From assembly GCA_027491115.1 (NCBI GenBank), contig JAIXWV010000020.1, positions 229,975 to 293,974 of the forward strand: a stretch of 64,000 nucleotides of DNA, written 5' to 3'. Positions 39,682 to 61,250 of the stretch are shown one piece after another. Positions within the stretch are counted from its first letter, which is position 1. Every line of letters starts with the position of its first letter. The position numbers were made by a program, and so were the translations under genes. Source of the DNA: Pseudomonadota bacterium. GTDB taxonomy: Bacteria > Bdellovibrionota > UBA1018 > CAIMNF01. The notes beneath the pieces were generated by a model. It saw only the letters and a program-made list of their open reading frames with translations, made no database searches and was not told the origin of the DNA.

Positions 39682-40482
39682 TCACTTGGCTGGTTTCTTC
39701 ACGCGATATACTCCCTTGTGCTCATTCGAATCAGCACGTCGACGAATCAGCTCGGCAATATCCGGATCGTGCTTTTGCGACTCCCTCGGAGCAAACAAAG
39801 CCCTCTCTCGAGGAGATGCCCCTTCCTGGGGAGCACAAAGGTAATAAACAGCAAGCGACTTCCTATAGATCCCAACGGGAAGCTCAACCGGACGACTCAT
39901 TCCATGCCAACTATTCTTGGTTGTATCGAAAATCACCGCCGTATTAAACGAGGGCGCATATTCCTCGATCAACTTCCCCGGGGAGTGGGTCTCTGCGTCA
40001 TTTTGCCAAAACCCCAGATGCCCCCCATGTTCTGGCCTAATTCCTGAAGACAGGTACACAATGATGTTCAACCTACGTTGTAACTTGAGCTTGGGATGGA
40101 TTGAATAGTCCAAATGAGGGTTTAGATTACCTCCTCTGCCGTGAATGTGCCATCCGCCTCCATGAAGTCCGGGGTCTGGAAAAAGCGGGGTTCCAACTTG
40201 TGAAGACAAGAGGTTCACGAATTCACTCGAGCATAATTCAGCCATCACCCTGTAAGTCAGAATAGGAAAATAAGCCCAATTGTTGAGTGCCTTCTTGTTT
40301 TCAATAGGATTCTCATAGGTAAACCAGCGAGAATCATCGTACTCTGGAAAATCATTCTCCAGCGACCTCGCAACCTGCTCAGGAAAAAAATCGGGAATAA
40401 CCCAATGGTCGAAAGGATCGCTCTTTTTCGAACAGGTCAACTTTCGATGTAGATTCGTGACGTCAAATAAAGCTGTATCCAT
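39682..40482 (-). CDS. 2OG-Fe(II) oxygenase superfamily protein (prolyl-4-hydroxylase-like)
   Basis: HxD...H facial triad context (NPHLDYSIHP ... EHGGHLGFW) with a downstream basic residue; about 266 aa. Confidence 0.55.
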   Translation of the reverse strand: MDTALFDVTNLHRKLTCSKKSDPFDHWVIPDFFPEQVARSLENDFPEYDDSRWFTYENPIENKKALNNWAYFPILTYRVMAELCSSEFVNLLSSQVGTPLFPDPGLHGGGWHIHGRGGNLNPHLDYSIHPKLKLQRRLNIIVYLSSGIRPEHGGHLGFWQNDAETHSPGKLIEEYAPSFNTAVIFDTTKNSWHGMSRPVELPVGIYRKSLAVYYLCAPQEGASPRERALFAPRESQKHDPDIAELIRRRADSNEHKGVYRVKKPAK

Positions 40483-40571
40483 CCGTAAGGATTATCCCTT
40501 GCCCGGAGAAAAAGAAAAGATGGTTCTTAGCACTGTTCGCGAAATCACTAAATAAAATGTAGAATCAGATC

Positions 40572-41240
40572 ATGAGACTTCTACTGGACCTCCTTGGCAA
40601 AACCCATCAACGTTTTGTTTTCCAACGCCGTTCCCAAGTATTAGCAAGAAATATTTCCGCACTGCTTGAGGAAGGGTCATCAGTCCTCGACGTGGGCTGC
40701 GGAAATGGGCAAATTGCAGCACTGATGATCCAAGAAAAACCAAGCCTCCGAGTGACCGGGGTTGACATCCATGCGCGCCCAAGTTGCGCCATTCCCTTTG
40801 CTCTTTATGATGGAACCACAATTCCCTATCCGGACAGGTATTTTGACGCCGTCATTCTAGTGGATGTGCTTCATCACACTCACAGACCTGCCGAGTTACT
40901 ACAAGAATGCGTGAGGGTTGCGAAATCCAATGTCATCATCAAGGATCACTACGCTGAGGGCTATTTCGACCATAAGGTCTTAGCGTTTATGGATTGGGTT
41001 GGGAATCGAGCTTGGAACGTAAAACTCACCTATCACTATCTATCCAGACGAGAGTGGATAGATCTATTTAAACGACTACAACTTAAAACCGAGAAGCTCT
41101 ATGAAAAAGGAATTGGACTCTATCCACTGTTGTTCAAGCCATTCTTCGAGAATGGTCTACACTTTATCGTCAAACTTAAACCACTCTCGACCGAGACAGT
41201 AAACCAATCGCAATCAAGACACTCGCAAGAAAGCACATGA
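40572..41240 (+). CDS. class I SAM-dependent methyltransferase
   Basis: Motif I VLDVGCGNGQIA; acidic post-motif II (VDIH); length 222 aa. Confidence 0.7.
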   Translation: MRLLLDLLGKTHQRFVFQRRSQVLARNISALLEEGSSVLDVGCGNGQIAALMIQEKPSLRVTGVDIHARPSCAIPFALYDGTTIPYPDRYFDAVILVDVLHHTHRPAELLQECVRVAKSNVIIKDHYAEGYFDHKVLAFMDWVGNRAWNVKLTYHYLSRREWIDLFKRLQLKTEKLYEKGIGLYPLLFKPFFENGLHFIVKLKPLSTETVNQSQSRHSQEST

Positions 41241-42540
41241 ATGCAGGGAAATAATACCTAAATACACAGTCAGGGCCATCGACGATGAAAATCGAATAAT
41301 AGAGCAATCCTGCTACGCAAAACATAAGCGGTGAGTAGTCTTTTTTCCGTAGGACCGCCACTGACGAAAGAAATAGCGCAATCAGGATCATGATATAGGG
41401 GCGCCCAAGAAACCCGTAAAACCCATAGGTGTAGGCTTCCATGCGACCCCAGTAGTCCATTCGGACCGGATTAAAAACCATCTTGTATTCATCATTGATG
41501 GAGGGGGTGTTATTCATAATTTCACTAATCACCCCCTGATCCATTGGGGCCTGAATACCCAGAAAATTCCCAGCAAAGATTAAATTATTCTTAATCCAGA
41601 TCTTAGGCTCCTTGATAGCGAAATCAAAAAAACATCTTACCTGTTCAACGGTTGAGCCCTCTTTTTTTATGTTTTGATAGATCTCCTTGCACAAAACCGT
41701 TCTGTAACAGCGATCATCAAATATCCTCTCTTCGTTGTGAAATACCCCTTTGATGCTATTTCTGATGCAAGAGCTTTCCTTCTCCCGAAGAAAGGAAAGG
41801 TTCCTCATCAATACCCCATGAAACGCTGTATCCATAGGATACACATTAAAGTACCGAGTCCCCAAGATCGACGCAACCACACCCAGAGGCAAAAGTATGG
41901 CCACGCAAGACCTCAAAGTCAGCCTCGATCGAGACCGGTATAGGCTCACCGGGATGAAGAAAAGTAGCGGGAGGAGGCTGACAAAATTGTATCGAAAAAG
42001 CAGACTCAAAGCCAAAAGCCCAGAGGCAAGGTAGAGATAGAATAGCTTCTTCGTGCGAAGGAAATTTAAAGCAAATGCGGTCATAAACAGCAAAATGATC
42101 GCAGCCGGCGTATCCGCTGAGTGAAAAATTCCGTAATTAATCAGAAAAGGCGTGAGACAGACGAGCACACCAGAGATAACCGAGTACCAACCCAATGAAG
42201 TGAAAGAAATCAAAACATAAAAAATGCTCAGGTTAGTAAGAAAAGACTGAATCACTGCGTAAGTGGATGGGCCCACCCCTAACTTCAAACACATCAGCTT
42301 GAAGAACGTGTTGAACAAGGGCCATTGTGATGTGATGCCGAACTTACTTAGATCGGCATCAAAACCATCATTAAGTTGGTAGGCCCAACCCCATTGGGAA
42401 GCCGAATCCCAAAACAACCAGCCCGGAGAAAGTCTGACTCCATGATAAACTGAAGACGCCAAACTAAATAGGACTACGAAAGAGACCCATAGCTGCTTCT
42501 TGTTAAGAATATCCATTTCCCAACTCAGCCTTTCCTTCAA
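41176..42540 (-). CDS. polytopic membrane protein (candidate GtrC-like or GT-C transferase)
   Basis: 454 aa with more than 10 TM helices, divergently adjacent to a GtrB-like GT2; its 3' end overlaps the convergent methyltransferase by about 65 nt. Confidence 0.35.
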   Translation of the reverse strand: MKERLSWEMDILNKKQLWVSFVVLFSLASSVYHGVRLSPGWLFWDSASQWGWAYQLNDGFDADLSKFGITSQWPLFNTFFKLMCLKLGVGPSTYAVIQSFLTNLSIFYVLISFTSLGWYSVISGVLVCLTPFLINYGIFHSADTPAAIILLFMTAFALNFLRTKKLFYLYLASGLLALSLLFRYNFVSLLPLLFFIPVSLYRSRSRLTLRSCVAILLPLGVVASILGTRYFNVYPMDTAFHGVLMRNLSFLREKESSCIRNSIKGVFHNEERIFDDRCYRTVLCKEIYQNIKKEGSTVEQVRCFFDFAIKEPKIWIKNNLIFAGNFLGIQAPMDQGVISEIMNNTPSINDEYKMVFNPVRMDYWGRMEAYTYGFYGFLGRPYIMILIALFLSSVAVLRKKDYSPLMFCVAGLLYYSIFIVDGPDCVFRYYFPAFMCFLASVLIAIGLLSRSRVV

Positions 42541-42677
42541 AACTCGGCCGACGATAGTAAAGTATTCTTCTCGGCTCCCTTAGAGAATCCTTGAATTAAG
42601 TAGAATACCTGTCAAAAAAAAGTCTAAATCACAAAGACTCTGGTCAGCTTGACGGGTTCTTCGCTGGGCATTATCTT

Positions 42678-43448
42678 TTGAGCATGACAGGCCAGACCGA
42701 CCTCACCCATTCGTTAAAAAAACCGGTTGTGGCCATTATCATTCCATCGTTCAACGAAGGTCCTCGGCTACTGAGGACTCTCAGAACCCTGGTCTCCTAC
42801 ATAGAGGAGGCAAACCATCCCACGATCCGCGAAAGAGACTTCCACATCTTGGTCGTGGATGACGGTTCTCACCCCCTTACCGACACCAAGACATTACAAG
42901 AGTCTCGAGGTAGCCAGTGCCAGATTTTTCTACTGCGACACTGGGTGAATCTCGGACAAGGCGCTGCTCTTCAAACTGGGATCGAGTTCGCCCGAGAAAA
43001 AATTCATCCGGATCATTTTGTTACCATGGATGCTGATGGGCAACATTCACCATCCGATCTTCCACTACTTCTGGAAACCATCATCAAAACAGAAACTGAC
43101 ATTGTGTTCGGAAATCGTTTTATAGGTATCTCCAACACCCCCGCGCTCAGGCGAGCTGTTCTCGCAGCTGCTGGCTGGTTTGAATACTGGATGACAGGAC
43201 TGAAGCTCGGAGACGCTCACAACGGATACCGTATTTTCAACTCAAAGCTCGGTGATGCCATCAACCTGAAATATAATCGCATGGCCCACGCAACGGAGTT
43301 TAAGGAGTTTGTCGGAAAATACGGGTTCCGCTTTACGGAAGCAAAGGTCAGCATCCACTACTCCCAAGAGTCACTCGCAAAGGGTCAAAGCAACATAGGC
43401 GCATTCAGGATAATTAGAGACCTGATTGCGGGCCACATTTTTGACTAG
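42678..43448 (+). CDS. GT2 polyprenol-phosphate glycosyltransferase (GtrB/DPM1/ArnC-like)
   Basis: VVAIIIPSFNEG...ILVVDDGSHP...DADGQH motifs of GT2 Und-P/Dol-P sugar transferases; 256 aa. Confidence 0.75.
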   Translation: MSMTGQTDLTHSLKKPVVAIIIPSFNEGPRLLRTLRTLVSYIEEANHPTIRERDFHILVVDDGSHPLTDTKTLQESRGSQCQIFLLRHWVNLGQGAALQTGIEFAREKIHPDHFVTMDADGQHSPSDLPLLLETIIKTETDIVFGNRFIGISNTPALRRAVLAAAGWFEYWMTGLKLGDAHNGYRIFNSKLGDAINLKYNRMAHATEFKEFVGKYGFRFTEAKVSIHYSQESLAKGQSNIGAFRIIRDLIAGHIFD

Positions 43449-43454
43449 GAGCTT

Positions 43455-43781
43455 ATGTACCGATACCACGTCGTCCTATTCCTGTTCATTATCGCTCTAC
43501 TTGTCTGGGATTGGATTTTTCTGGAAAAACCTTTCCGGCGAGTACTCGGCTGGCTCCTATTCTTTTTGACCTTGGTTACGGTAGGCTGTCTCAATTCCGG
43601 ACTGGTGGTGAGAGCGGAACGTCTTCTTCAGGCCCAGAGTCTGTCGGACCTATTCATTTATATTGTTTGTGTTCTTTTTACCCGTGAAGTGATCCTCAGC
43701 CGGGCTCGCAACAACAAGAAAAACGTTGAATTCACAAAAGTGGTCCGGGCCTTGGCGAAAGAGCGCGCTGAGAGACTTTGA
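43455..43781 (+). CDS. small membrane protein (GtrA/DUF2304-like flippase candidate)
   Basis: 108 aa, 3-4 TM helices, immediately downstream of and co-directional with the GT2 gene. Confidence 0.4.
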   Translation: MYRYHVVLFLFIIALLVWDWIFLEKPFRRVLGWLLFFLTLVTVGCLNSGLVVRAERLLQAQSLSDLFIYIVCVLFTREVILSRARNNKKNVEFTKVVRALAKERAERL

Positions 43782-44586
43782 GCGCAAAATCCCGGTAGGT
43801 AGAAACGCGTACGCTCTGGTTCGTGAGGTTTTTAAGTCGACTTAGTGCGTCTCTCCTGTTCCAGTAGAGCAATAAATTGAGGAGTGGATTTCTATTTACC
43901 CCTCCATGCATGTAATACTCCTCGTCTGGGTCAAAGTCATACGGGTGGAAGTAGGTAGGAATCGCTTCCCCTGAAGCAATGGAACGACGGACAGCGCTGA
44001 ATAACATTCCACGCGGAAGCAGCCTAAAGTACACCCCTCCTACGGGTACGGACCAAGGTCCTAATTTTACAGGCCTCATTGGGATCTCTACCACTCCTGC
44101 CGCAATCCTGGGCTCCGGACCATATCCGGCCCAGCCATGAAGCGGGTTGGCTGCTGGTAGAATGGAGGAAGAGTATATGAACCCTGCTTTACCCAATTCC
44201 TCATGAGCCCAGTTGGATTCGGGTGTGAGGGAGAAAATGGGAGCTCGGTATCCGAGTATCGGAACTCCAAGTTGCTGCTCGAAATCTTTAGCAATCCAGA
44301 GATCCTTCCGGAACTCTTCCCGGGACATCTCATTCAATGGTCGATGGGAGTCTGAGTGCCAAGCGAGCTCATGTCCGGCGGCAATCACCTTAGCGATCAG
44401 TTCGGGGTGATTCCGCATGATGTTGCCGACAGTGAAGAAGGTACACTTGAGCGATAGGGGCTCAAGCAGAGAGAGGAACTTTTCCGTATTGAACACTACG
44501 CGCGAGGGATAGCGACACCCCCTCTCAGAGTCAAGACGAGGATCTTCCAGATCGAGACTCAATAGTAGTTCGCCATCGTTTCTCAA
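43732..44586 (-). CDS. polysaccharide deacetylase (CE4 NodB-like, DUF3473-type)
   Basis: TFFTVGNI...HELAWHSDSH...GYRAP motifs of the CE4 family. Confidence 0.65.
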   Translation of the reverse strand: MRNDGELLLSLDLEDPRLDSERGCRYPSRVVFNTEKFLSLLEPLSLKCTFFTVGNIMRNHPELIAKVIAAGHELAWHSDSHRPLNEMSREEFRKDLWIAKDFEQQLGVPILGYRAPIFSLTPESNWAHEELGKAGFIYSSSILPAANPLHGWAGYGPEPRIAAGVVEIPMRPVKLGPWSVPVGGVYFRLLPRGMLFSAVRRSIASGEAIPTYFHPYDFDPDEEYYMHGGVNRNPLLNLLLYWNRRDALSRLKNLTNQSVRVSTYRDFALKVSQRALSPRPGPLL

Positions 44587-44587
44587 T

Positions 44588-47316: not shown

Positions 47317-47317
47317 A

Positions 47318-48721: not shown

Positions 48722-48739
48722 ACTTTCCCCTTGACCGCT

Positions 48740-51709
48740 TCACACGCGAGTCTCCCGATCCGACTCGAAATCGTTTCCTGCATTCAACATTTCAAAATAC
48801 TTTCCTCGGGTCGACATCAGGAAATCATGATCTCCTTCCTCGATTACGTGCCCCCCCTCCACAACCAGAATACGATCGACATTCCTCACAGTGGAGAGAC
48901 GATGGGCGATGATAATCGCCGTACTCCCATGAAACACTTCCTTGAGGTTCCTCGCCACAATCCCCTCTGAGTCTGCGTCGAGAGAGGAGGTCGCCTCATC
49001 AAGAATGATCACGCGGTTTCTACGGTAGAGTGCCCGAGCGAGGATCAACCTCTGCTTCTGGCCTCCTGAGAGGCCCAATCCCCCCTCCCCCAGTCGATAT
49101 TCGTACTGGTTCGGAAGCTCATGGATGAACTCATCGCAGTTCGCTAGGCCAGCAGCCCACCGGATCCGGTCCATGTCGGGGGTATCGTCTCCATAAGCGA
49201 TATTGTCGCTAATCGTACCCGAGAACACCTTGGAGTCCTGGTTCACATATGCGACTTGACTACGAACTGTAGACAGATTGAGGGAGTTGATGTTGACCCC
49301 GTCGAGTTCAATTGCACCCTTTTGAACCCTATAGAATCCTGCGATGAGGTTCGCGATGGTCGACTTCCCTGATCCGCTACTGCCCACGATCGCTACGACC
49401 TCACCTGGCCGTACCCTGAAGTCCATGTCACGGAGAACTGGGGGGCCCTCCGGGCGGTACTGAAACGAGACACACTTGAAACAGATTTCGCCGCGTAATG
49501 AAATACGGATTCCCGACCCGACATCGTCCTGAGACTGTTCAGACGGTGACAACAGGATCTGTCCTACTCTTTCGAGTGAAAGTTTCACATTCTCCCAGTC
49601 CAATACCATCGAGCTCAAGCTTGAAACTGGACTAGAAACCATCTTCAAATAAAGGTTAATCGAGATCAGCTCGCCCGGCGTGAGCCGCCCATCGAGCACT
49701 CCGCGGGCAGCCAGATACAATCCCACAACCGATCCCGTACCAGAAATCAACGAAGTCACTAAACCGAAGTGATTCATCCTCATTTGAAGCCGATAACCTC
49801 GAGCTCCGAGGGAAACGAGCAATCCCTCCCAACGATCGAGAATCTCGCGCGTTACGGAATTAGCTTTGATGGTCTGGATCGAAGACACCATTTCCGCAAG
49901 GAAGCTATCTAGCTTTACCTCATCCCTGAATAACAGTTTCGATTCCTCGACATATCCTTTTTTAAAAATCAGATTGCCGAACAAAAGACTTACAAAAATG
50001 GCTGCTGGTATAGCGAGGTACTCTGCTCCAAAGGTAGAGAGCATCACGCTCCCCGCCACGACCATGAGGACATCCACTAACAGGCTAATGGCGCCTGTCG
50101 AAATGAAGCGTCGAATTCCGCTCATTTCAGACATCCGAGCAACCACCTCCCCGATTCGGTCTCCAGTAAAAAGATTGGGATGAGCCGCAAGGTACCGATG
50201 ATAAAAAACAGAACTCAGATGGAAGTTTGACTGATTAGTGAATTCATTGATCACAAACTTCTGAGCTGTCCTCGAGACAATTGAAAAAAGTCCTAGAGCA
50301 AAAATCAATCCGACCACTCCCCAGACGAGTCCGGGTTCCTTCAGGGGCAGAATGTCGTCAAACAGGTACTGCATCACTTTTGGAAGAATGGTCTCAATCC
50401 CGACTACAAGTCCGAGTAGCATCAGAAAGGTCAGAAAAAACGACCGATAAGGACTCAGCAACTCCCAGATGATTCTCATGACTCGAAATTGCTTGCGCTC
50501 CGTCGATTCACCCTCAGGAACCCCCTCAGCCCGGGATCTAACCTCGATCAGGGTCCTGTTCCAGATCTTTCCGATCTCATCGAGAGAAGCCCTTCGGAGT
50601 CCCGACATTCCATCATAAAGAATCCACTCACTCGCTTTACATTCGAGCACCACCACAACTCGCTTGTTCACTAGAATACAAAATGGACAGCGATTCTGGG
50701 GCCCCGCTCTTTCTGCTTTCCAAATTTTTACATATAAGCCCTGTGACTCAAGGACCTCAGCCAAAACTAAGGGGGTCCTTGCACGCTTGAGCGACAACCC
50801 CTTGGCTAGTGCTTCGGAATCAACAACCACTCCCGCCAGAGATCCATAAACACGGAGCGCATCGACGGTAGCCTCAGTGAGCGTCTTGGCCTGACGGGAA
50901 CGCTGATCGATCTGCGACCACCGCTCATCTTCCATCGACTCGCCAACCATCTCGATCACTTCCGATCCCACCACGGGGACCGCCCTAATTGCACGCTTCA
51001 GGCAGGAGTTTGAATCAAGAACCATCATCAATTCAGCGAAATCATCCTTAGGAAGCGGCATGGAATTGATCACTGCCGCGGTAAGGGCTTCGCAAGAAAA
51101 CCGATCTAGGACGAACCAGGAGCCCGACCCGAGAAACTGGGGAGTAGCATACTCAGAATCGGAGGCGTCCGGATGAAGAAGAACCTCTCCTTCATCTACC
51201 CAATAAAGAGCCCCCTGATCGTTTCTACTTAGCACTTCACCTTTTTGAAGCGACTGCCCCTTACCGTTTGTTTCGCCGAAAAAACGCACCAAACGACCCG
51301 CAGGAATTCCGCTGGAGCGGAACAAGGCATCGAGATTCTCTAAAGCGGAACAACTGAATACGGTCTTGAGATACCAACTCCCCTCATTGTTTTTTCGGAA
51401 AGACGTTTCAATCAGGTCGACTGAAACACTTAGGAACCATACAGGGAAAGGGGCTATGTAATCTTGTGCATGCGTTTGATTGAGGATCCACTCCCGAAGA
51501 CCATAGGCCCATGGAGAACTCAGCCCGGATACGGAAAAAAGTATATGCTTAACCGATTCTCCCTTTCGAAAGATCAGCTCTCCCTCTTTGTAGGAAACTA
51601 TCCTGCTCGAGATCAAGCAATCTGTTTCAAGACTGGGAAACAACTCCAGCAAACGCTTGAACTGGGAGGAACGATGGATCACCTGGGAAACATTCATGCC
51701 CGGAGTCAT
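48740..51709 (-). CDS. NHLM-type ABC exporter with N-terminal cNMP-binding-like domains and a degenerate C39-like domain
   Basis: 989 aa. N-terminal cNMP-binding-like segments (e.g. YKEGELIFRKGESVKHILFSVSGL), a C39-like region lacking the catalytic Cys context, a 6-TM ABC exporter domain, Walker A GSSGSGKST, signature LSGGQKQR, Walker B ILDEATS. Confidence 0.75.
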   Translation of the reverse strand: MTPGMNVSQVIHRSSQFKRLLELFPSLETDCLISSRIVSYKEGELIFRKGESVKHILFSVSGLSSPWAYGLREWILNQTHAQDYIAPFPVWFLSVSVDLIETSFRKNNEGSWYLKTVFSCSALENLDALFRSSGIPAGRLVRFFGETNGKGQSLQKGEVLSRNDQGALYWVDEGEVLLHPDASDSEYATPQFLGSGSWFVLDRFSCEALTAAVINSMPLPKDDFAELMMVLDSNSCLKRAIRAVPVVGSEVIEMVGESMEDERWSQIDQRSRQAKTLTEATVDALRVYGSLAGVVVDSEALAKGLSLKRARTPLVLAEVLESQGLYVKIWKAERAGPQNRCPFCILVNKRVVVVLECKASEWILYDGMSGLRRASLDEIGKIWNRTLIEVRSRAEGVPEGESTERKQFRVMRIIWELLSPYRSFFLTFLMLLGLVVGIETILPKVMQYLFDDILPLKEPGLVWGVVGLIFALGLFSIVSRTAQKFVINEFTNQSNFHLSSVFYHRYLAAHPNLFTGDRIGEVVARMSEMSGIRRFISTGAISLLVDVLMVVAGSVMLSTFGAEYLAIPAAIFVSLLFGNLIFKKGYVEESKLLFRDEVKLDSFLAEMVSSIQTIKANSVTREILDRWEGLLVSLGARGYRLQMRMNHFGLVTSLISGTGSVVGLYLAARGVLDGRLTPGELISINLYLKMVSSPVSSLSSMVLDWENVKLSLERVGQILLSPSEQSQDDVGSGIRISLRGEICFKCVSFQYRPEGPPVLRDMDFRVRPGEVVAIVGSSGSGKSTIANLIAGFYRVQKGAIELDGVNINSLNLSTVRSQVAYVNQDSKVFSGTISDNIAYGDDTPDMDRIRWAAGLANCDEFIHELPNQYEYRLGEGGLGLSGGQKQRLILARALYRRNRVIILDEATSSLDADSEGIVARNLKEVFHGSTAIIIAHRLSTVRNVDRILVVEGGHVIEEGDHDFLMSTRGKYFEMLNAGNDFESDRETRV

Positions 51710-52281: not shown

Positions 52282-52367
52282 ACCTTAATTTCAACATATT
52301 TCTCCCTCTTTTGCACAGCTCTTGCTAAAATAATTGTGTCCTGAACCCTGACAGAAATGGATCCTTC

Positions 52368-54899
52368 TTGAGTAATGAACACACAAAGGCGTTACTGACT
52401 CTTGCAAGCGATCTCACATTCTTCAACTTCAACGAAGTGGAGATTCATGAAACTCTAGAACTGTTTCGACAGATGAGTGAGAATCTTCAGCCGCGAACCG
52501 GCGAACGAGCCGTGATCATATCGCTCGAATCGGGCGCTTACCGGATGACGCTCGGCCCCCCCCGACCCGAACCTGGGTTCGACGGGGAGCTGATTTTCCT
52601 TACCGAAGAAACTTGGTCTTCCCGAGTAGGCAAGGAGAAGACTGCACCCTTCCTGGATTTCCTCGAGCATGAGATTCCCAGCGAAGCTCACCTCAGCGGT
52701 GAACAAACCACAACTGACCCAGACGAGGAGATTCGGCTTTTCCACAAAAACTCAAATGCACCAGAAGGAAAACCCGTATTTATCCCTCAACACGACGAGA
52801 TGGACTGCGGAGCCGCCTGTCTTTCGATGATCGCGCATTATTACGGGAAAAAGATATCTGTCCCTGACTATCGCTCAAGAGTCCATGTTACCCGCGAAGG
52901 GGCCTCCATGCTCGCCCTCAAACGCGCGGCCGAACAAACCGGTTTCGACGCAATCGGAATCTACTCTGGATTAAACTCGAATCTACTTCAGGTTCGCACT
53001 CCGTTCATCGCCCTCATGGACTATCATTTTGTCGTGGTCTATACGGTGACGGAGAAAGAATTCCTAGTTGGGGATCCCGCAGTTGGAATTAGATCAATCC
53101 CACTGGAAGAAATAAGAAAGTCGTGGTCGAAGTTCCTGCTCCTATTGAAGCCAAACTCCACTTTCAAAGACCAGAAAGAGAGCTCACCTACATTTAGAAA
53201 GTATCGACGTGTTTTTCAAGGAGAAGGAGGCCGCCTTTTCGATATCGCGACCGCATCGATCTTGAGCTTATCTGTAGGGGTGATCACACCACTCTTCATG
53301 CAAACCGTTTTCGATCGTGTATTCAGCGAAAAAAGCCAGGATGGACTCACGGCCTTGGTCATTGCCTCAGTGGCCGCCACAGTCGCATCGACTTTCTTGG
53401 GCTGGGTGAGCACCTACACATTCTCCCATTTATCCATTCGTCTAGATTCCAAGTTCTCCGCTCTGTTCATGCGACACACCCTATCTCTACCCTCTGGATT
53501 TTTCGCTGTGAGGCGGGTCGGAGACATTACCACACGTGTTCAAGAGTTGGGCGTGTTGAGGAGTTTTTTTACTGGGGATCTCCTCGCGTTGCTGATGTCA
53601 CTCCTGTCTGCGGTCATGTATTCAGTTCTTGCGGCGCTTTACGACTGGAGAATCCCTCTTCTGGTATTCTGTCTTCTTTTCTTTCAGGTACTTTTCGTTC
53701 TTAAAATTTCAAAGAAAATCTCTGAAATTTACCAGCAGTCCTTTAAGTCTTCGACGAAGAGTCAAAGCCTTCTTTATGAACAGATCCATTCGATCGAGAC
53801 GCTTAAAATCCTCAATCAGACAACTCCGGCCCGCTGGCGATGGGAAGAAACTCTTCTAGACTCCCTCAGGCTTCAAAGAAAACTCGGTCTATATACTGCA
53901 ATTTCAGCAGGCAGCTCGGAATTCTTTAGAGAAGCCTCCCTCAATATTTGTATCTTTCTATGCCTTTATCTTTACCTACTGAACGATCTGACTCTCGGTC
54001 AGATTGTGGCGGTCACTGCCCTGATCGGGAACATCACACCGGCGATTGTTCATCTGGTAGAGTCACTTACTACCATCAGCCAAATCAAGGTCTCTCTTGC
54101 AAGGGTGGATGACGTGATCACTTCGTCTCCAGAGAAGACCGAGGGTCGCATGGATTTCGATCCTTACGGAAAGATCGAGTTCAGAGGAGTATCATTCCAG
54201 TACGGAAATGAGTTATCGCCATATGCCCTCCGGAATGTGGATCTAACCATCAACTCCGGGCAGTCGGTGGCTTTTGTGGGAACAAGCGGTTCTGGCAAAA
54301 CAACTCTTGCCCAGATGATCGGGCTACTCCATCGCCCCACACAAGGCAGTATCCTGATTGATGGTGTCGACATCACCACTTTGGACCTGGAGAGACTCAG
54401 ACAGCATGTCGGAATGGTCCTTCAGGAAAACAACCTCTTCAGCGCGAGCGTACTAGACAACATCACCCTAGGGGACCCAAACCCATCCCGACAAAAGGCG
54501 ATCGAGGCAGCCAAGATCGCTCAGATCGACGAACTGATTCAGACTCTGCCTGGGACATATGATTATCTGATCGACCCAGTTCACTCCGGCCTTTCGATGG
54601 GCCAAAAGCAAAGAATTGGAATTGCGCGAGCAGCCTATAGGAATCAAGCCATCCTTATCCTAGATGAGGCAACCTCTGCGCTTGATGGAATCACAGAGAA
54701 AAAAATCATTGAAGCTCTGATGCGGCACCGGAAAGGCAAGACAACAGTGGTAATCGCTCACCGGCTTTCTACTGTTTCTGGAGTGGACCAGATCTGTGTT
54801 TTTGAAAAGGGCACTCTGGCTGAAAAGGGAACCCTGAAGACTCTCACTCGAAGAAGGGGGAGATTCAGCGAACTATTCGCCAATCAACTTCAATTCTGA
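52368..54899 (+). CDS. peptidase-C39-containing ABC transporter (PCAT, double-glycine leader processing exporter)
   Basis: C39 catalytic motif QHDEMDCGAACLSMIAHYYG, 6-TM exporter domain, Walker A GTSGSGKTT, signature LSMGQKQR, Walker B ILDEATS; 843 aa. Confidence 0.85.
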   Translation: MSNEHTKALLTLASDLTFFNFNEVEIHETLELFRQMSENLQPRTGERAVIISLESGAYRMTLGPPRPEPGFDGELIFLTEETWSSRVGKEKTAPFLDFLEHEIPSEAHLSGEQTTTDPDEEIRLFHKNSNAPEGKPVFIPQHDEMDCGAACLSMIAHYYGKKISVPDYRSRVHVTREGASMLALKRAAEQTGFDAIGIYSGLNSNLLQVRTPFIALMDYHFVVVYTVTEKEFLVGDPAVGIRSIPLEEIRKSWSKFLLLLKPNSTFKDQKESSPTFRKYRRVFQGEGGRLFDIATASILSLSVGVITPLFMQTVFDRVFSEKSQDGLTALVIASVAATVASTFLGWVSTYTFSHLSIRLDSKFSALFMRHTLSLPSGFFAVRRVGDITTRVQELGVLRSFFTGDLLALLMSLLSAVMYSVLAALYDWRIPLLVFCLLFFQVLFVLKISKKISEIYQQSFKSSTKSQSLLYEQIHSIETLKILNQTTPARWRWEETLLDSLRLQRKLGLYTAISAGSSEFFREASLNICIFLCLYLYLLNDLTLGQIVAVTALIGNITPAIVHLVESLTTISQIKVSLARVDDVITSSPEKTEGRMDFDPYGKIEFRGVSFQYGNELSPYALRNVDLTINSGQSVAFVGTSGSGKTTLAQMIGLLHRPTQGSILIDGVDITTLDLERLRQHVGMVLQENNLFSASVLDNITLGDPNPSRQKAIEAAKIAQIDELIQTLPGTYDYLIDPVHSGLSMGQKQRIGIARAAYRNQAILILDEATSALDGITEKKIIEALMRHRKGKTTVVIAHRLSTVSGVDQICVFEKGTLAEKGTLKTLTRRRGRFSELFANQLQF

Positions 54900-55651: not shown

Positions 55652-55669
55652 GTTGCGACACCACTCGTT

Positions 55670-56758
55670 TCAAAACCGTACATACTGATCTCCCCTAACC
55701 AATAACCCCAACCCCATCATCGACTCGATTTCACGAGGATTGAAAAAAGCAATCTCCTCACGGTAGTATTCCGGCAAGAGGGCCTCTTTCCCGGCCAGAA
55801 CCATATCTCGGGCCTCTGGAATCACCCCCTCGGGCCGAATTCCACTCTCCGACTCCTCGTACTGGTTGATCCGATGGAGGTTGAAACCCGAGACTCGACG
55901 GCGGAACATCTCGAACCCACACATCGGGAAATGGAGAATAAGTGCGCTCATACTGTCATCAATCACCACTGAAGCATTGGTAAGATCGGGGTGGTAGTGA
56001 TGCACCGTAGAGGGAGTTTCGATATCTATGAAGTGCCTCGGCCTGAAAACACTCTTTCCATGAGCATACCCGACGAAAGGAAATCTCCGAAAGGCGCGAT
56101 ATCTCATGTACAACCATTGCTTCTCACTCAATATGAAGCGGGTCTTTTTAAAGAGTGCCACCTCTCGAAAGGCGTCTCGGTACTCAATCTGCTGGGGAAC
56201 TGCCTCAACATTAGGAACAAATACCTCTGAGACACGATCATCGAATCGACTCAGATACTCGCTCACTCCGCCACAGGTTCTATCGACCCCAAATAGCTCG
56301 TCTGAATCGAGGTGACAAAGCCAGTCTATTCCCTCCTGAGCAGCGAGTCGTGTGGCATACCCAGTATTGAGCTGCTGCCGCGTCACCACTCTTCTGGAGT
56401 AGGTCTCAGCATGATTCTGATAAAAAATAGTTTTTTGGAGCACCTGCAAGAGGCGGTCGTCATGCTGAATAATCTGCACAAAAGAAGAAAATTCTGACGC
56501 CTGTAGAAGTTCCAAAAATGCGGCGTCATAAGCTGGATCATCCAGAAAAAGATACACCTTTTCAAACCCAACTGAACGGTGGTGACTTAGAAAACTAAAA
56601 AATCCGGAATCAAGCCCTTTGGCTGTAGTCACCAGTGCGGACTTCAACCCATCCCCCAAAAAAGAAAAAGGGCGTCCTTCTTCAACAAAGAAGGACGCCC
56701 CGAAATCATTACTTACCGCCGGCTTTGACCGCACCAGGCTTAGCCCCGGCAGGAGCAA
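55670..56758 (-). CDS. GT92-like glycosyltransferase (second copy)
   Basis: SVGFEKVYLFLDDP and LDSDELFG motifs, a paralog of the preceding gene. The first-listed start is TTG; the true start is uncertain and may lie downstream. Confidence 0.45.
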   Translation of the reverse strand: MLLPGLSLVRSKPAVSNDFGASFFVEEGRPFSFLGDGLKSALVTTAKGLDSGFFSFLSHHRSVGFEKVYLFLDDPAYDAAFLELLQASEFSSFVQIIQHDDRLLQVLQKTIFYQNHAETYSRRVVTRQQLNTGYATRLAAQEGIDWLCHLDSDELFGVDRTCGGVSEYLSRFDDRVSEVFVPNVEAVPQQIEYRDAFREVALFKKTRFILSEKQWLYMRYRAFRRFPFVGYAHGKSVFRPRHFIDIETPSTVHHYHPDLTNASVVIDDSMSALILHFPMCGFEMFRRRVSGFNLHRINQYEESESGIRPEGVIPEARDMVLAGKEALLPEYYREEIAFFNPREIESMMGLGLLVRGDQYVRF

Positions 56759-57146
56759 CGCCTTGCTTCACCGCGGTGGCGGCACTTGCCTTCTGGAATG
56801 GGAACTTGGATGCTGCTCTGAAGCCAGCGCCACCCACCACCAGGTTCGCAAACCGGGCGGATGCGGTGAGCTCGTCGGTGGAGATACCACCTCCGGCGAG
56901 AACCGCCATCTGGGAATCACTCAGCTTCTTCATTCCCCATTCGGAGTCGAAATGAATCAGGTCATCGAACTCTTCAAAGGTTGAGCAAACTCTGGCGACT
57001 TTACCGAGTGACAGTGCGTCTGCTGCGTCAACGGTAGGTCCGAGTAGTTTTGCTTTGGCTTTGATAGAGGTTTCGTCATCCCTTCTAAACGACTCATAAA
57101 CAGACTTCAGAATCACCTTTGGAATACGCCCCTTGGACATCGACAT
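56709..57146 (-). CDS. candidate RiPP precursor: NHLP/Nif11-like leader ending in a double-glycine motif plus a Gly/Ala/Lys-rich core
   Basis: Strong RBS (GGTAAGGAGAAAGC-ATG) and an AT-rich upstream region. Residues 1 to about 86 form the leader, with ...MKKLSDSQMAVLAGG(G) at 72-87 matching the LSxxELxxVxGG consensus. KAKLLGPTVDAADALSLG resembles the NHLP/Nif11 helical block. The 58-59-aa core is ISTDELTASARFANLVVGGAGFRAASKFPFQKASAATAVKQGVAPAGAKPGAVKAGGK. Flanked by a C39-PCAT cassette. Confidence 0.55.
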   Translation of the reverse strand: MSMSKGRIPKVILKSVYESFRRDDETSIKAKAKLLGPTVDAADALSLGKVARVCSTFEEFDDLIHFDSEWGMKKLSDSQMAVLAGGGISTDELTASARFANLVVGGAGFRAASKFPFQKASAATAVKQGVAPAGAKPGAVKAGGK

Positions 57147-57308
57147 GCTTTCTCCTTACCAGCGGAATAAAAGTAACCGCTTTTACATGATTGTAATGTT
57201 TCCTTGTCGGATCAGGTAACAAATAATTAATATTTTTTATGTAAAAAAAGCCGTCTGATTCAAGGGGTTCCATAGAGGTGTCAAAAATGACACTCACCAA
57301 TTCGAGCC

Positions 57309-57992
57309 TCACCTCATGAAGTATTCAATAAATGGCTCGATATTGGCCTTCTGATCCGGACCCCCATTTCCATGGATAATGAGTGGCTGCGTCCCGGTGA
57401 GGACATTTTCAACTCGACCCCCGCTCATCGTATAATCCCAGCCGATAAATCCCGGCGAGAAAAGGGTATAGAATAGCTCGCACCGATGATCGAGTTTAAT
57501 CAGGCCCGGGTTCTCGAGAAACAACCGGGTGTAGAACCTCTGGTCATCCCCCCAGATGTCGACTCCTGAGAAGTTAAAACGCAATGCCGCATTGCGAAAA
57601 TACTCAATCTCAGCCATGAAGCACCCAGCATTGAGGAAACGCCAAGGTGTTTCACAGGGGGGATAGCGGTCTTCCATACCGGCGTCCGGCCAGCAACTCT
57701 GTTCGGCATTAAACACCCAAGGATGTTGAAGTTCGATAAAGCGACGCTCCACCTCCTGTAAGGGAGCTGTGACGACTACATCAAACGCGTCCATGACTAG
57801 TACATGGGTGAATTGATCGCGCATTTCCTCGATAGTTTCGAAAACTCGCTTGATCTTGAGGGCATGAGAGTACTTGGGGAACCCCTCGGGCCAAACGTTT
57901 CGAACCTCGTAACCAAACGAATTCCAGATCCTCGAGCACTCCTTGAAATAGCCACCTTCTCCGTTCCACATGGATAGCACCAGTGTTTTCAT
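57309..57992 (-). CDS. glycosyltransferase homologous to the N-terminal GT domain of lysyl hydroxylase LH3/PLOD (collagen Hyl-glycosyltransferase-like)
   Basis: Motif-by-motif resemblance to the LH3 GT domain as I recall it: DxxD MDAFDV (LH3 VDSYDV), AEQSCWPD (AESFCWPE), WRFLNAGCF (KRFLNSGGF), DDQRFYTRLFL (DDQLFYTRLYL), LDHRCELF (LDHKSRIF), PLIIHGNGG (PIVVHGNGP). Confidence 0.5.
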   Translation of the reverse strand: MKTLVLSMWNGEGGYFKECSRIWNSFGYEVRNVWPEGFPKYSHALKIKRVFETIEEMRDQFTHVLVMDAFDVVVTAPLQEVERRFIELQHPWVFNAEQSCWPDAGMEDRYPPCETPWRFLNAGCFMAEIEYFRNAALRFNFSGVDIWGDDQRFYTRLFLENPGLIKLDHRCELFYTLFSPGFIGWDYTMSGGRVENVLTGTQPLIIHGNGGPDQKANIEPFIEYFMR

Positions 57993-58639
57993 GGACTCAT
58001 AAACCTCGCGACTTCACGATAACGATTGAGATTCTCCGGTGGGATGCCGGCCCTGAAATACTTGTACACTTCTTCCACTTCGACGAAATCGAGCTCCTGG
58101 AACACCTCTACCGGACCGATCGGCAACTGGTACCAAAATCCGGCTAATTCCGTTCGATAGATCCCAGAAAGAATATCGAGCTTAAGCGAGAACTGATCTG
58201 AGGAAAGAGTATGAGCGGTGTAGTTTCTGGAGAATGCTCCCGGTGAAAACACCGGAACGCCAAGCTCGGCGGCCGCCCAATGAACTGCATACGAGACATC
58301 CTGATGCTGGATGTGCCCATACTCGCCGTGTGGAGAATGGGTATAGACCACCTTGTATCCTCCCGAGCGGATCAAGTTCAGAACCGCCTCGTACACTTCC
58401 TCTACGGGCAGTCGCTCGCGAAAGCTATCTTTCAGACTAAGGAGTTCAATCCGAGGCACACCGAGCGCCTGACCGGCGGAATGGAGCTGCGCCATTCGTG
58501 CCTGACCCCTGCCCTCATAGTTTCCGTCGGTCACACAACACAAATCTGCAGCACCGGGGTAAAGCACCGTGAACACCGAAGTAAAGAACAAGGTCTCATC
58601 ATCAGGGTGGGCAGCAACCACTAGCGCTTCACTCTTCAT
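57989..58639 (-). CDS. PIG-L/LmbE-family N-acetylglucosaminyl deacetylase
   Basis: AAHPDDETLFF zinc-binding signature at the N-terminus; 216 aa. Confidence 0.75.
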   Translation of the reverse strand: MKSEALVVAAHPDDETLFFTSVFTVLYPGAADLCCVTDGNYEGRGQARMAQLHSAGQALGVPRIELLSLKDSFRERLPVEEVYEAVLNLIRSGGYKVVYTHSPHGEYGHIQHQDVSYAVHWAAAELGVPVFSPGAFSRNYTAHTLSSDQFSLKLDILSGIYRTELAGFWYQLPIGPVEVFQELDFVEVEEVYKYFRAGIPPENLNRYREVARFMSP

Positions 58640-58752
58640 CAGGTCTTAATCTACACCATCAATCAAGGAATACGGAGAGGCCAATGCATCGTCAGAAATC
58701 CGTCGCTATGCCCAAGCATTGGGAAAGGATAATTTAGCTGAAGGAGCACACG

Positions 58753-59808
58753 ATGCGAACGAAAATCCGGGTGCATTTTCACATCCCCGAGCCCGATGTG
58801 GGCGGTGCCGAGGTTCACGCACTGAACCTATGGAAAACCATCGATCGGTCGAAGTTTGAGCTTACAGTGAGCGCTCCTCCGATGAGGCCAGAGTTCCAGT
58901 GGTTCGAGGAAGAGATCAGGCGCCACGCTCCACTTCACATCTTTTCACGCTCTCCATCCGAGATCGCTCATTTCCTGAGTTCGGTTCGCCCATCCTTGAT
59001 TCAGTTCTACAACAGCATTGATTTTTGTGATGCTCTCGACACTATCGATTTCCCCTTCGCCGGGATCGAGCTCATTCACGCAAAAAAGTTCTGGGGACAG
59101 GACATTACCAAGACTCCAAAGCACCACGTCCGCATCATCATTGGAGTCAGTGATGATGCCTGTAGGTTTTACCTTGATAACCGACTGGAGCGGGACATCG
59201 AGGTCAGAACCATTTGGAATGGGATTGATACCGGGAGATTCCCGCCGAGGCGTAAGGAAGACCCGGATCGATTACGATTCCTCTCGGTCTCTCGACTCAG
59301 TATCGAGGATAAGCGACTCGACGATTTGATTTACTTCTTCAACCGACTCGGGGTTTCCACACACGAACTCCACCTGGTCGGGGAAGGCTCGGATGAGGGC
59401 GTTCTTCGTGAGTTTGCGGAGTCACTCGGGGCTGGAAACGTTCGGTTTCGTGGCTTTCTTGAGGATCCCTCAACCGCTTATTCGGAAGCAGACGTCTATA
59501 TCTCGCTGTCCGAACGCGAGGGGTATGGCCTAAGCCTGGCTGAGGCAGCCGCATGCGGACTTCCAATCCTCAGCTGGAACTGCGGAGGGGTCATGGATCT
59601 ATTTGAGGACGGCAAAAATGCTCTGATCCTTGAAAAAGACGGAGACATTCTTCCGGCGATGTCCCGGATGCTCAAGGATTCCGAGCTCAGGAGAATGCTC
59701 GGACAGAACGCTCGTGCCCTGGCTCAAGCAAAGTTTGATCTCAGAGGAATGACCCGGAGCTACGAGAAACTCTACGAGGAACTCTTGACTCCCCATTCAT
59801 TCGGTTGA
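58753..59808 (+). CDS. glycosyltransferase family 4 (GT-B)
   Basis: RBS AAGGAG; C-terminal EGYGLSLAEAAACGLPILS... GT4 signature (E-x7-E region). Confidence 0.75.
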   Translation: MRTKIRVHFHIPEPDVGGAEVHALNLWKTIDRSKFELTVSAPPMRPEFQWFEEEIRRHAPLHIFSRSPSEIAHFLSSVRPSLIQFYNSIDFCDALDTIDFPFAGIELIHAKKFWGQDITKTPKHHVRIIIGVSDDACRFYLDNRLERDIEVRTIWNGIDTGRFPPRRKEDPDRLRFLSVSRLSIEDKRLDDLIYFFNRLGVSTHELHLVGEGSDEGVLREFAESLGAGNVRFRGFLEDPSTAYSEADVYISLSEREGYGLSLAEAAACGLPILSWNCGGVMDLFEDGKNALILEKDGDILPAMSRMLKDSELRRMLGQNARALAQAKFDLRGMTRSYEKLYEELLTPHSFG

Positions 59809-59861
59809 CGGCGGCTGTCTGCTCAATTGCACTTTAAGCCGAATCCTGCCACGATTGTTGC

Positions 59862-61250
59862 ATGGGGAATCACCTCTACCGCTGGGACGAAATCCAAAAG
59901 CTAAAGGATCTAGCGATCCGGCCGGAGGTTGCCTCTCCATTCGTCGAAGGCTCGGTTCGGACTGGCACTCCGATCGTCCTACGGAACCCGGTCGGGGGTG
60001 CTCTTTTTACAGAAAGGGACACCCTCGAAGTGATCCGAGATATTTTCCTGAATCCCTTCAGGGATCTTCCGAATCCGAAAATCATCCTCGGAGACTCAGA
60101 ACTCTTCTCTGATTACAGCAACGATCCCGACGGGCTCGCCGAGAAACTGCTTCGCCTTGCGCCGTTACCCGATGAAGAGACCGTGAGCAGTTATGTGGAA
60201 CGAGTGAAGCGAGAGACTGGCTCGAGCGAACTTTTCTATTATATGAAGATCCGTTCAGCAAATCATCCCCTCCTCTGGTTCAAAGTCCGGGAGGTGCAGA
60301 AACACATCTTTAACCGAATGCCCTATCCGGCCGGAGGTGTCGAGCTGGATATTTTCTTCGGCGATTACTCCAAAACACCCACTAACATCCATCGGGACGG
60401 AGCCGGCTTCATTTATGTCGTGAGTGGATCAAAAAAATTTCATGTGTGGCCGTTCGACCGATTCAGCGGACTCGATTCGGTCAAAAACGATGCCCGATTG
60501 AGGCCCGCTTACTTTCTTGGCGAATCTGTACGCTTCGAAGATGCGGTGGCGACAGGAATCCCACTCGAGGGGAGTCGAGGCGACATCATCTTCTGGCCAG
60601 ACGACCATTGGCATATCGCGGAGGGAGACGGAAGCATTGCGATCACTTTCTGCATGAGTTTTTTCTTTAACTTCTCCATTCTCAGTGAAATCGAGCCCGC
60701 ACTCCAGTCCATCGGTGCAGGGGATCCACAATCATTAGTCCCGCGCGAGCTATCGAAATCGGGAGGATCAGGTCCGGATGTGACTCCGTTAAATAATGAG
60801 CTGGTCACAGCCCTCGATCGCTGGTGGAAGGATACCAGCGTCATTTACAGTAGGCTACGAGAAGCCTATACACTGAAACAAATCGAGAGGACGAGCGGAG
60901 CAGGTTTCAACCAGCCCTTTTTTCCAGTTAGGATCGATCGGGAAAGCCTGATTGGGGTTCGCCTGAAATGTGATCCGGAGTTCCCCTTGCATCATGTTGT
61001 CCTGGGCAAGGTCACCCATGTTGCCGCAAATGGCATAAGCAGCGCCTTCACGGACGCTTGTGAACCGCTTATTCCATTTCTTACCTGGCTCAACACAGGG
61101 GCGGAGTTCACGACCGACACAGCAACCATATTGTTCCAGGAGACGACACGGCAATCGGTCAACGAGCGCGAGCGTAGAACTCTTGAAAGCTGCCTCGAAT
61201 TCGTTCTGTCGATGAGAGCGGCATTCATTGTAAACGGAAGCGGTCCATGA
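59862..61250 (+). CDS. JmjC/cupin-like domain protein (candidate 2OG-dependent hydroxylase)
   Basis: Cupin beta-sandwich with a HxD...H arrangement (NIHRDGAGFIYVVSG...FHVWPFD ... IIFWPDDHWHIAEG); 462 aa with an extra C-terminal domain. Confidence 0.4.
   Translation: MGNHLYRWDEIQKLKDLAIRPEVASPFVEGSVRTGTPIVLRNPVGGALFTERDTLEVIRDIFLNPFRDLPNPKIILGDSELFSDYSNDPDGLAEKLLRLAPLPDEETVSSYVERVKRETGSSELFYYMKIRSANHPLLWFKVREVQKHIFNRMPYPAGGVELDIFFGDYSKTPTNIHRDGAGFIYVVSGSKKFHVWPFDRFSGLDSVKNDARLRPAYFLGESVRFEDAVATGIPLEGSRGDIIFWPDDHWHIAEGDGSIAITFCMSFFFNFSILSEIEPALQSIGAGDPQSLVPRELSKSGGSGPDVTPLNNELVTALDRWWKDTSVIYSRLREAYTLKQIERTSGAGFNQPFFPVRIDRESLIGVRLKCDPEFPLHHVVLGKVTHVAANGISSAFTDACEPLIPFLTWLNTGAEFTTDTATILFQETTRQSVNERERRTLESCLEFVLSMRAAFIVNGSGP

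Follow-up and report, generated by a model that had tools for sequence, protein, structure and literature searches.

Two distinct Fe(II)/2-oxoglutarate oxygenases, P4H-like and JmjC-type, within a glycosyltransferase-rich island of a Bdellovibrionota genome

Comparable oxygenases described elsewhere

Several oxygenases have been described in pathways for peptides synthesised by the ribosome and modified post-translationally (RiPPs). According to the respective reports, BipG/BpmG is a JmjC ornithine hydroxylase of the biphenomycin pathway (PMC12707348), CzlI is a JmjC phenylalanine hydroxylase of the curacozole pathway (PMC11575548) and MppG is a leader-dependent 2-oxoglutarate (2OG) hydroxylase whose RiPP recognition element (RRE) domain reads a Nif11-like leader (bioRxiv 10.64898/2026.10.04.756588). 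The stretch of DNA analysed here (the window) comprises 64,000 nucleotides of contig JAIXWV010000020.1 (positions 229,975 to 293,974; assembly GCA_027491115.1, a bacterium placed in the Bdellovibrionota) and holds two oxygenase genes of different families. One encodes a protein resembling prolyl-4-hydroxylases (P4H), P0001 (39682..40482, minus strand; 266 amino acids, ATG start), and the other a JmjC protein, P0002 (59862..61250, plus strand; 462 amino acids, ATG start). The ends of both in the list of open reading frames (ORFs) are identical to those given in an earlier note on this DNA, and residue alignments and profile searches uphold its view that both are Fe(II)/2OG oxygenases and show an intact facial triad in each. 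P0001 is read here, with reasonable assurance, as a sugar-pathway enzyme rather than a peptide prolyl hydroxylase, while P0002 is predicted, somewhat less firmly, to be a peptide hydroxylase for the neighbouring precursor peptide.

The setting of P0002 is like that of BipG, CzlI and MppG, as far as these can be likened by description, in that an oxygenase gene lies beside a gene for a ribosomal precursor with a long leader. Their clusters are not described as rich in glycosyltransferases (GTs) in the accessible text of those reports, unlike the island that holds P0002, whose host also belongs to a different phylum. RRE-like domains fused to JmjC domains, with strands and helices in the same order as in P0002 and with bacterial homologues in RiPP-like contexts, have also been reported (PMC12710340). 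In its build, P0002 resembles the ribosomal oxygenases (Escherichia coli YcfD/RoxA, Rhodothermus YcfD, NO66 and MINA53) and FIH, sharing the JmjC beta-helix, the HxD...H motif and an aligned lysine, and having the same three-part build as the ribosomal oxygenases (Foldseek alignments of 466-531 columns, probability 1.00). It differs from them in sequence (8-14% identity in the structural alignments) and in its non-housekeeping setting, a GT operon beside a gene for a secreted peptide.

For P0001 the closest solved structures are OGFOD1 and Tpa1 (Rps23 prolyl hydroxylases), together with the P4H/PHD enzymes. The best match in the PDB has an E-value of 6e-10 and a root-mean-square deviation of 2.7 Å over 210 columns, and the same Pfam family (2OG-FeII_Oxy_3) is involved. 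P0001 differs in its low identity to these proteins (15-19%), in consisting of a single domain of 266 amino acids and in its context, which is glycan synthesis as opposed to translation. HygX and AviO1 (orthosomycin orthoester synthases) as well as PolD and PasI (high-carbon sugar nucleosides) were also among the structural matches of P0001 (E 3e-09 to 1.5e-06), and the fold can therefore act on sugars. These enzymes come from antibiotic pathways and no relation to P0001 at the level of sequence was seen; the sequence match to HygX belongs to a further oxygenase of the island, of the PhyH type, and not to P0001.

The island is also comparable to the collagen-modifying enzyme LH3/PLOD and to mimivirus L230 (PMC9614988), since a GT of the PLOD type likewise lies near 2OG oxygenases and a lysine-containing substrate. 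LH3 and L230 each have a hydroxylase domain of the PLOD type joined to the GT in one protein, whereas the GT of the island is a stand-alone protein (227 amino acids) and the candidate hydroxylase is of the JmjC type. The core of the island's precursor peptide has no Gly-X-Y repeat.

P0001, an oxygenase of the P4H/OGFOD1 fold

P0001 is an Fe(II)/2OG oxygenase of the P4H/OGFOD1 fold with an intact triad. It matches Pfam 2OG-FeII_Oxy_3 (E 9.8e-14; 52.5 bits against a cut-off of 27) and 2OG-FeII_Oxy_4 (E 4.7e-08). The triad residues, located by alignment on the minus strand, are H123 (40114-40116), D125 (40108-40110) and H193 (39904-39906), and these are invariant among 28 aligned family members (alignment A4), as is R207 (39862-39864, minus strand), which is predicted from its position to be the basic residue for the C5 carboxylate of 2OG. 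The AlphaFold (AF2) model of P0001 (pLDDT 88.8) is a double-stranded beta-helix with Foldseek probabilities of 1.00 to OGFOD1, Tpa1, P4H and PHD2. Against the PDB, OGFOD1/Tpa1 ranked best, followed by PolD, PasI, P4Hs, PHD2, HygX and AviO1; prolyl hydroxylases and sugar enzymes are thus mixed among the structural neighbours, and the fold therefore covers both chemistries. A phmmer search of the PDB returned OGFOD1 only (E 0.036), and no specific sequence relation to characterised P4Hs was found by it. Neither P0001 nor P0002 matches PF00908 (dTDP_sugar_isom, RmlC type) and both keep their triads, which removes the possibility, considered in the earlier note, that these proteins belong with the sugar epimerases. 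The sole NCBIfam match of P0001, to the cyclophane peptide oxygenase YhhC (E 0.012; 15.3 bits against a cut-off of 150), was dismissed as noise.

P0001 belongs to a large family: of 2170 candidates, 1904 proteins match it at E<=0.001. The 120 best of these have 53-65% identity to P0001; named sources among the homologues listed are Paraburkholderia, Burkholderia and Paracaedibacteraceae. Such identity across the listed homologues would fit a common small substrate. Within the phylum, members were found in 18 of 401 genomes (E<=1e-30) and in none of 14 other genomes of the genus, a patchy distribution that marks P0001 as an accessory gene. The genome analysed here encodes a paralogue (61% identity; contig C2, L004:4734-8918) located between RmlA and RmlB-RmlD-RmlC, in a cluster that also holds DegT, further dehydratases, a GT4 and two DUF2079 membrane proteins.

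The genomic context of the family was surveyed in species-representative genomes, where 101 relatives were found, 80 loci were kept and 41 of these were chosen for genus spread. Six loci (L057, L061, L066, L067, L084 and L124), in which the homologue was not placed by the ORF caller, were left out, and in the other 35 the two nearest ORFs on each side were taken as neighbours (136 proteins scanned). Genes for nucleotide-sugar synthesis, GTs, Wzx/Wzy, RgpF, capsule or O-antigen export were present among the four nearest ORFs in 25 of the 35 loci, and a GT2 gene directly adjoined the oxygenase gene in 12. None of the 136 neighbours was a C39 peptidase. Two loci, from Methylophilus (L047) and Acidovorax (L051), show a flagellin-DegT-FdtA setting, which suggests a role in flagellin glycan synthesis for the family members there. 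Among viral structures (BFVD), the best match of P0001 was a 616-amino-acid protein of Mimiviridae named 'GDP-mannose 4,6 dehydratase' (TMq 0.82, 32% identity, 274 columns, E 6e-22), judged from its name and length to be a fusion of an oxygenase with a sugar dehydratase; the ESM Atlas clusters nearest P0001 are 56-69% viral.

The immediate neighbours of P0001 were identified in a Pfam scan of 24 ORFs located between 34 and 64 kb of the window. A gene for a DUF6311 membrane protein of 568 amino acids (37950..39656, minus strand; Pfam DUF6311, E 3.4e-13) shares its strand with the P4H-like gene and lies 25 bases downstream of it, and the two probably form a two-gene operon. A GT2 resembling polyprenyl-phospho-sugar synthases (42678..43448, plus strand; Glycos_transf_2, E 7.6e-23) has as its best NCBIfam match the polyprenyl-phospho-GalNAc synthase PpgS (NF058614, E 1.1e-47), with 162 bits, which is below the cut-off of 370. 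It is directly followed by a hydrophobic ORF of 108 amino acids (43455-43781, plus strand; noted from its translation). Two large membrane proteins are encoded near the PpgS-like gene, the DUF6311 protein and a protein with a weak Agl23-like match (41176-42540, minus strand). The GT2, the 108-amino-acid ORF and the membrane proteins together look like a polyprenyl-phosphate-sugar system for extracytoplasmic glycosylation. The oxygenase that neighbours ppgS in the mycobacterial locus, Rv3633, was considered as a lead and dropped, its family not being stated in the accessible part of PMC6487176.

Because of the family contexts, the paralogue in the rml operon, the viral match and the DUF6311 and PpgS-like neighbours, the substrate of P0001 is probably a sugar or glycan, predicted from the family contexts to lie in a 6-deoxyhexose pathway. 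The earlier note had assigned the hydroxylation of peptide prolines to this enzyme; this is unlikely, as the clusters in which the family is found across phyla are those of O-antigen, rml and GT2 genes, with no peptide-export neighbours. Three observations speak for caution over the sugar assignment. At ten of the 35 loci (L064, L081, L098, L103, L107, L116, L118, L119, L120 and L125) the four nearest ORFs include no glycan gene, two prolyl hydroxylases, OGFOD1 and Tpa1, are the solved structures closest to P0001, and the closest homologue of P0001 seems to travel with the precursor peptide, which leaves room for a peptide role. No paper on the chemistry of the family was found in literature searches. 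The oxygenase family to which P0001 belongs is very widespread and highly conserved, with members in clusters for O-antigen, for rhamnan and for flagellin glycosylation and in sugar clusters of giant viruses; its substrate, once known, would fill a gap in the biosynthesis of 6-deoxyhexose glycans.

P0002, a divergent JmjC oxygenase

As modelled, P0002 is a divergent JmjC enzyme with the build of the ribosomal oxygenases and FIH, made up of a JmjC domain, a helical part and a C-terminal winged-helix domain. The residues Y169 (60366-60368), H177 (60390-60392), K191 (60432-60434) and H251 (60612-60614), located by alignment on the plus strand, are invariant in 53 aligned sequences, and D179 (60396-60398, plus strand) is at least 90% conserved. 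In a hidden Markov model alignment K191 shares its column with a lysine of FIH, which we take to be the 2OG-binding residue of that enzyme. A profile of the P0002 family matched the PDB entries of the Rhodothermus YcfD-like arginyl hydroxylase RmYcfD (1.3e-08) and FIH (2e-06), followed by E. coli YcfD, Bacillus subtilis YxbC, JMJD5, MINA53, NO66 and JMJD7. The credible matches among the best 60 of 79 were JmjC protein hydroxylases only, and the solved members of the clade (YcfD, NO66, MINA53, FIH, YxbC and JMJD5/7) are all protein hydroxylases. The description of P0002 as a JmjC/cupin protein of the JMJD6 type holds for the JmjC part; there is no specific likeness to JMJD6, which is absent among these best 60 of 79 profile matches and among the Foldseek matches listed. 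The AlphaFold model (pLDDT 86.6, pTM 0.86) matches JmjC ribosomal oxygenases and FIH with a Foldseek probability of 1.00, and can be aligned over its full length to NO66, YcfD, MINA53 and RmYcfD.

The C-terminal domain of P0002 (residues 365-456; 60954..61229, plus strand) shows in the model three or four strands and then three helices (DSSP), which is the winged-helix or RRE-like order of secondary structure as far as the model goes. The profile alignment of the family to RmYcfD (4csw) spans 216-427 and runs through this domain. Profile searches of the domain with Pfam, RRE and Nif11 models gave no match (E<=10).

A search of 1.84 billion representative proteins with P0002 gave 754 matches at E<=0.001, only three of them at E<=1e-30: a true relative (P0125, 60% identity), a fragment of 87 amino acids and a protein of 28% identity. 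Cupin_8 and/or JmjC_2 domains were detected in 22 of 23 relatives scanned, several above the cut-off. Two relatives (P0182 and P0207) are JmjC-PhyH fusions and a third (P0227) may carry a sulfotransferase domain (E 0.0066), which hints at multi-step tailoring enzymes in the family. The two fusions were considered as a link to the PhyH gene of the island and rejected, the BLASTP E-values (0.004 and 0.022) indicating no specific relation.

In the phylum, relatives of P0002 occur in 79 of 401 genomes, its own included. Of 116 genomes of the order, the one analysed here alone has the gene; no orthologue was found in the remaining 115, nor in the 16 other genomes examined from the genus. A scan of genome contigs with P0002 and metagenome scans with two alignments (A3 and A6) returned no relatives. 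The best match to the JmjC profile in the phylum (L035:1446-4717, contig C78 of genome G313) adjoins a gene for a 660-amino-acid protein with a weak radical-SAM match and one for an APH-type kinase, and may represent another peptide-tailoring setting.

The P0002 gene lies in an operon whose first gene encodes a GT4 (58753..59808, plus strand; Glycos_transf_1, E 7.4e-27). A gap of 53 bases separates the GT4 gene from the JmjC gene, whose stop is overlapped by 4 bases by the start of a gene for an Exostosin/GT47-like protein (61247..62341, plus strand; Exostosin_GT47, E 9.3e-17). Two further 4-base overlaps follow, into a gene for a WbsX-like GT found in the Pfam scan (62338..63531, plus strand) and then into a GT8-like gene (63528..64000, plus strand) that runs past the end of the window and is complete in the flanking stretch (L132:103-789). 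The JmjC gene is thus translationally coupled into a GT operon. The earlier statement that the GT genes are bracketed by the two oxygenases holds only roughly, as the JmjC gene lies inside this operon and GT genes continue beyond 61250 and beyond the window end.

Because of its absence from the rest of the order and these overlaps with GT genes, P0002 is regarded as an island-specific recruit from a clade of protein hydroxylases. P0002 does not have the distribution of a housekeeping ribosomal oxygenase: it occurs in a single genome of the order and in a GT island of low G+C content. One alternative is that the enzyme ignores the precursor and acts elsewhere, hydroxylating a protein of the cell or of its prey, or a substrate that is not a protein; its position in the GT operon would then reflect co-transfer only. 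This agrees with the solved relatives, which act on ribosomal proteins or on ankyrin/HIF substrates, and with the housekeeping contexts of remote homologues in the phylum. The absence of the gene from the other genus and order genomes shows that it is not a housekeeping gene here, and this, the 4-base overlaps and the appearance of the closest homologue with the precursor on two contig sizes make such a substrate rather unlikely.

The assignment of P0002 as a peptide hydroxylase also has to be weighed against the following. Its only Pfam match is to Cupin_8 (E 0.0041), with 17.5 bits below the cut-off of 27.4, and a search of the PDB with the single sequence gave no match. Eleven of 12 loci of remote homologues fetched from the phylum are of housekeeping type (rRNA methyltransferase, MetRS, RecG) and, with 61 proteins scanned, none of the 50 neighbours at 11 such loci was a GT or a C39 gene; the wider family is therefore not specific to RiPPs. 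The precursor peptide has no match to Nif11 or NHLP profiles (E<=10), and the shared contigs of the homologues described below are deduced from equal sizes only.

The precursor peptide and the proposed roles

The precursor peptide is encoded by an ORF of 145 amino acids (56709..57146, minus strand) which, from its translation, has a leader of residues 1-86 and a core of about 59 residues. Residues 75-86 are LSDSQMAVLAGG, a double-glycine leader end. The gene is located inside a GT operon, between the genes for the PLOD-type GT and a GT92-like protein; the P0002 gene is 2.7 kb away and itself lies 5 kb from that of a C39 ABC exporter. The PLOD-type GT is encoded at 57309..57992 (minus strand; GT_PLOD, E 6.1e-30) and its family occurs in four of 401 genomes of the phylum, a rarity that makes the combination unusual and does not establish its chemistry. 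The gene order bears out the clustering of the JmjC gene with the precursor and the PLOD-type GT proposed in the earlier note. Located 8 bases past the precursor stop codon is a terminator-like hairpin (56669..56701, minus strand), whose stem of 15 pairs is followed by a T run. For this reason the TTG listed as the start of the next ORF (56758) probably lies too far upstream.

Three homologues of the precursor (80-98% identity) conserve the entire 86-residue leader and the core. The core is rich in serine and threonine. Residues K114, P116, K119, P132 and K145 are invariant in the four sequences, whereas K136 and P137 vary, so that the motif AP..KP..K..K ascribed to the core is conserved only in part. 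A complex prediction of P0002 (alignment A1) with the 145-amino-acid precursor gave a score of 0.00 and a mark of 0.32, which speaks neither for nor against binding. A longest listed contig of 38,142 bases is common to the closest homologues of P0002 (P0125, 60%), of P0001 (P0006, 65%), of the precursor (P0288, a cluster member) and of the PLOD-type GT (P0291), those of a second set (P0278, P0290 and P0292) have one of 18,714 bases each, and P0276 and P0286 (homologues, one of the PLOD-type GT and one of the precursor) both have one of 2,645 bases. Because of these equal sizes, and from them alone, the same island appears to be conserved in other assemblies.

From the folds, metal and 2OG ligands, gene order and family contexts observed, and the co-occurrence of homologues seen in contig sizes, we infer both substrates, the target residue and the coupling to glycosylation as follows. 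P0001 would oxidise a nucleotide-activated sugar, a lipid-linked sugar or the finished glycan used by the GTs of the island. P0002, an enzyme of the ribosomal-oxygenase/FIH type, would have been recruited into the GT operon, where with Fe(II), 2OG and O2 it would add a hydroxyl group to a core side chain of the double-glycine precursor, before removal of the leader by the C39 ABC exporter. The C-terminal domain of P0002, with its order strand-strand-strand-helix-helix-helix, is a candidate leader-binding module. That the sugar role of P0001 and the peptide role of P0002 both hold is a tentative proposition, put somewhat below an even chance. Should the precursor prove to be the substrate of the JmjC enzyme, peptide hydroxylation would be joined to an unusually large set of GTs around one exported peptide.

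A more specific possibility is a collagen-like decoration, in which the JmjC enzyme would hydroxylate the conserved K114, K119 and K145 and the PLOD-type GT would start an O-glycan on the hydroxylysine, to be extended by the GTs of eukaryotic type (GT92-like, GT47-like and GT8-like) using sugars that the other two oxygenases had modified. This is considered improbable; if true, it would represent a new class of hydroxylysine-glycosylated RiPP with a JmjC enzyme in place of the PLOD hydroxylase. A full-text search for bacterial hydroxylysine-glycosylated RiPPs gave no paper that was relevant by its title, and no description was found of peptide hydroxylation combined with so large a set of GTs around one exported peptide.

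The scheme of the earlier note goes further, with hydroxyproline made by the P4H-like enzyme, hydroxylysine made by the JmjC enzyme on the same core, and O-glycosylation of both by the PLOD-type and other GTs. It is in keeping with the presence of both oxygenases, the PLOD-type GT and the precursor in one low-G+C island, the equal contig sizes of the closest homologues elsewhere, the invariant prolines P116 and P132 and lysines K114, K119 and K145 of the four precursors, the prolyl hydroxylases among solved structures nearest P0001, and the joining of a lysyl hydroxylase to a GT in mimivirus L230 (PMC9614988). Set against this are the occurrence of the P0001 family in rml, O-antigen and GT2 clusters without peptide genes, a conservation of P0001 across phyla that is too high for a private peptide substrate, the variable K136/P137 pair of the motif and the many core serines and threonines open to direct glycosylation. 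To our knowledge, collagen lysyl hydroxylases are not JmjC enzymes, which also counts against the scheme, and as a whole it is very unlikely. What stands of the pairing of a hydroxylase with a GT for hydroxylysine or hydroxyproline is the JmjC gene as a candidate, linked to the GT by gene neighbourhood alone; the P4H-like gene is an unlikely partner.

It is also conceivable that two unrelated neighbours are present, namely an exopolysaccharide or surface-glycan locus comprising all GTs and oxygenases, and a bacteriocin with its exporter whose peptide is left unmodified. The region of 37.9-48.7 kb does resemble a glycan-modification locus (PpgS-like GT2, deacetylase, MBOAT, AlgX-like and membrane proteins) and nucleotide-sugar epimerase/dehydratase genes are located at the contig end. 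The position of the precursor gene inside a GT operon, the 2,645-base contig size shared by homologues of the PLOD-type GT and precursor elsewhere, and an M16 peptidase that is also in the island argue otherwise, making this separation quite improbable. The reading preferred here remains that of a sugar role for P0001 and a peptide role for P0002.

Other features of the island and its flank

The G+C content falls from 0.55-0.59 to 0.45-0.53 at about 37.9-38 kb and stays low up to the window end. The low-G+C island thus starts at about 37.9 kb and both oxygenase ORFs lie inside it. An S-adenosylmethionine-dependent methyltransferase gene (40572..41240, plus strand; Methyltransf_23/11/25) is divergent from the P4H-like gene. 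The C39-peptidase ABC exporter (52368..54899, plus strand; Peptidase_C39, E 6.6e-32) has TIGR03796 as its best NCBIfam match (470.7 bits, below the cut-off of 853), and a second ABC exporter of 989 amino acids (48740..51709, minus strand) has a weak cNMP-binding match in its N-terminal part. Other genes identified in the Pfam scan encode a polysaccharide deacetylase, a GMC oxidoreductase, an AlgX-like protein, an MBOAT protein, a PIG-L deacetylase and two Glyco_tranf_2_4/GT92-like proteins.

The contig extends 9.2 kb past the window end. In this flank, along with the remainder of the GT8 gene, are encoded a GT4, a PIG-L-domain protein, a GNAT protein, the M16 peptidase, a third oxygenase and two nucleotide-sugar epimerases/dehydratases. 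This further Fe(II)/2OG oxygenase is of the PhyH type (L132:6962-8017, about 6.4 kb past the window end; PhyH, E 7.4e-13) and matches the sugar-oxidising HygX by sequence (E 7e-13). Its gene adjoins those of the M16 peptidase and of the two epimerases/dehydratases, where the contig stops. The island thus encodes three oxygenases from three different families. At its left border lies a gene for an RCC1-repeat protein of 1183 amino acids (34032-37583, plus strand; WD40_RLD, E 3e-108).

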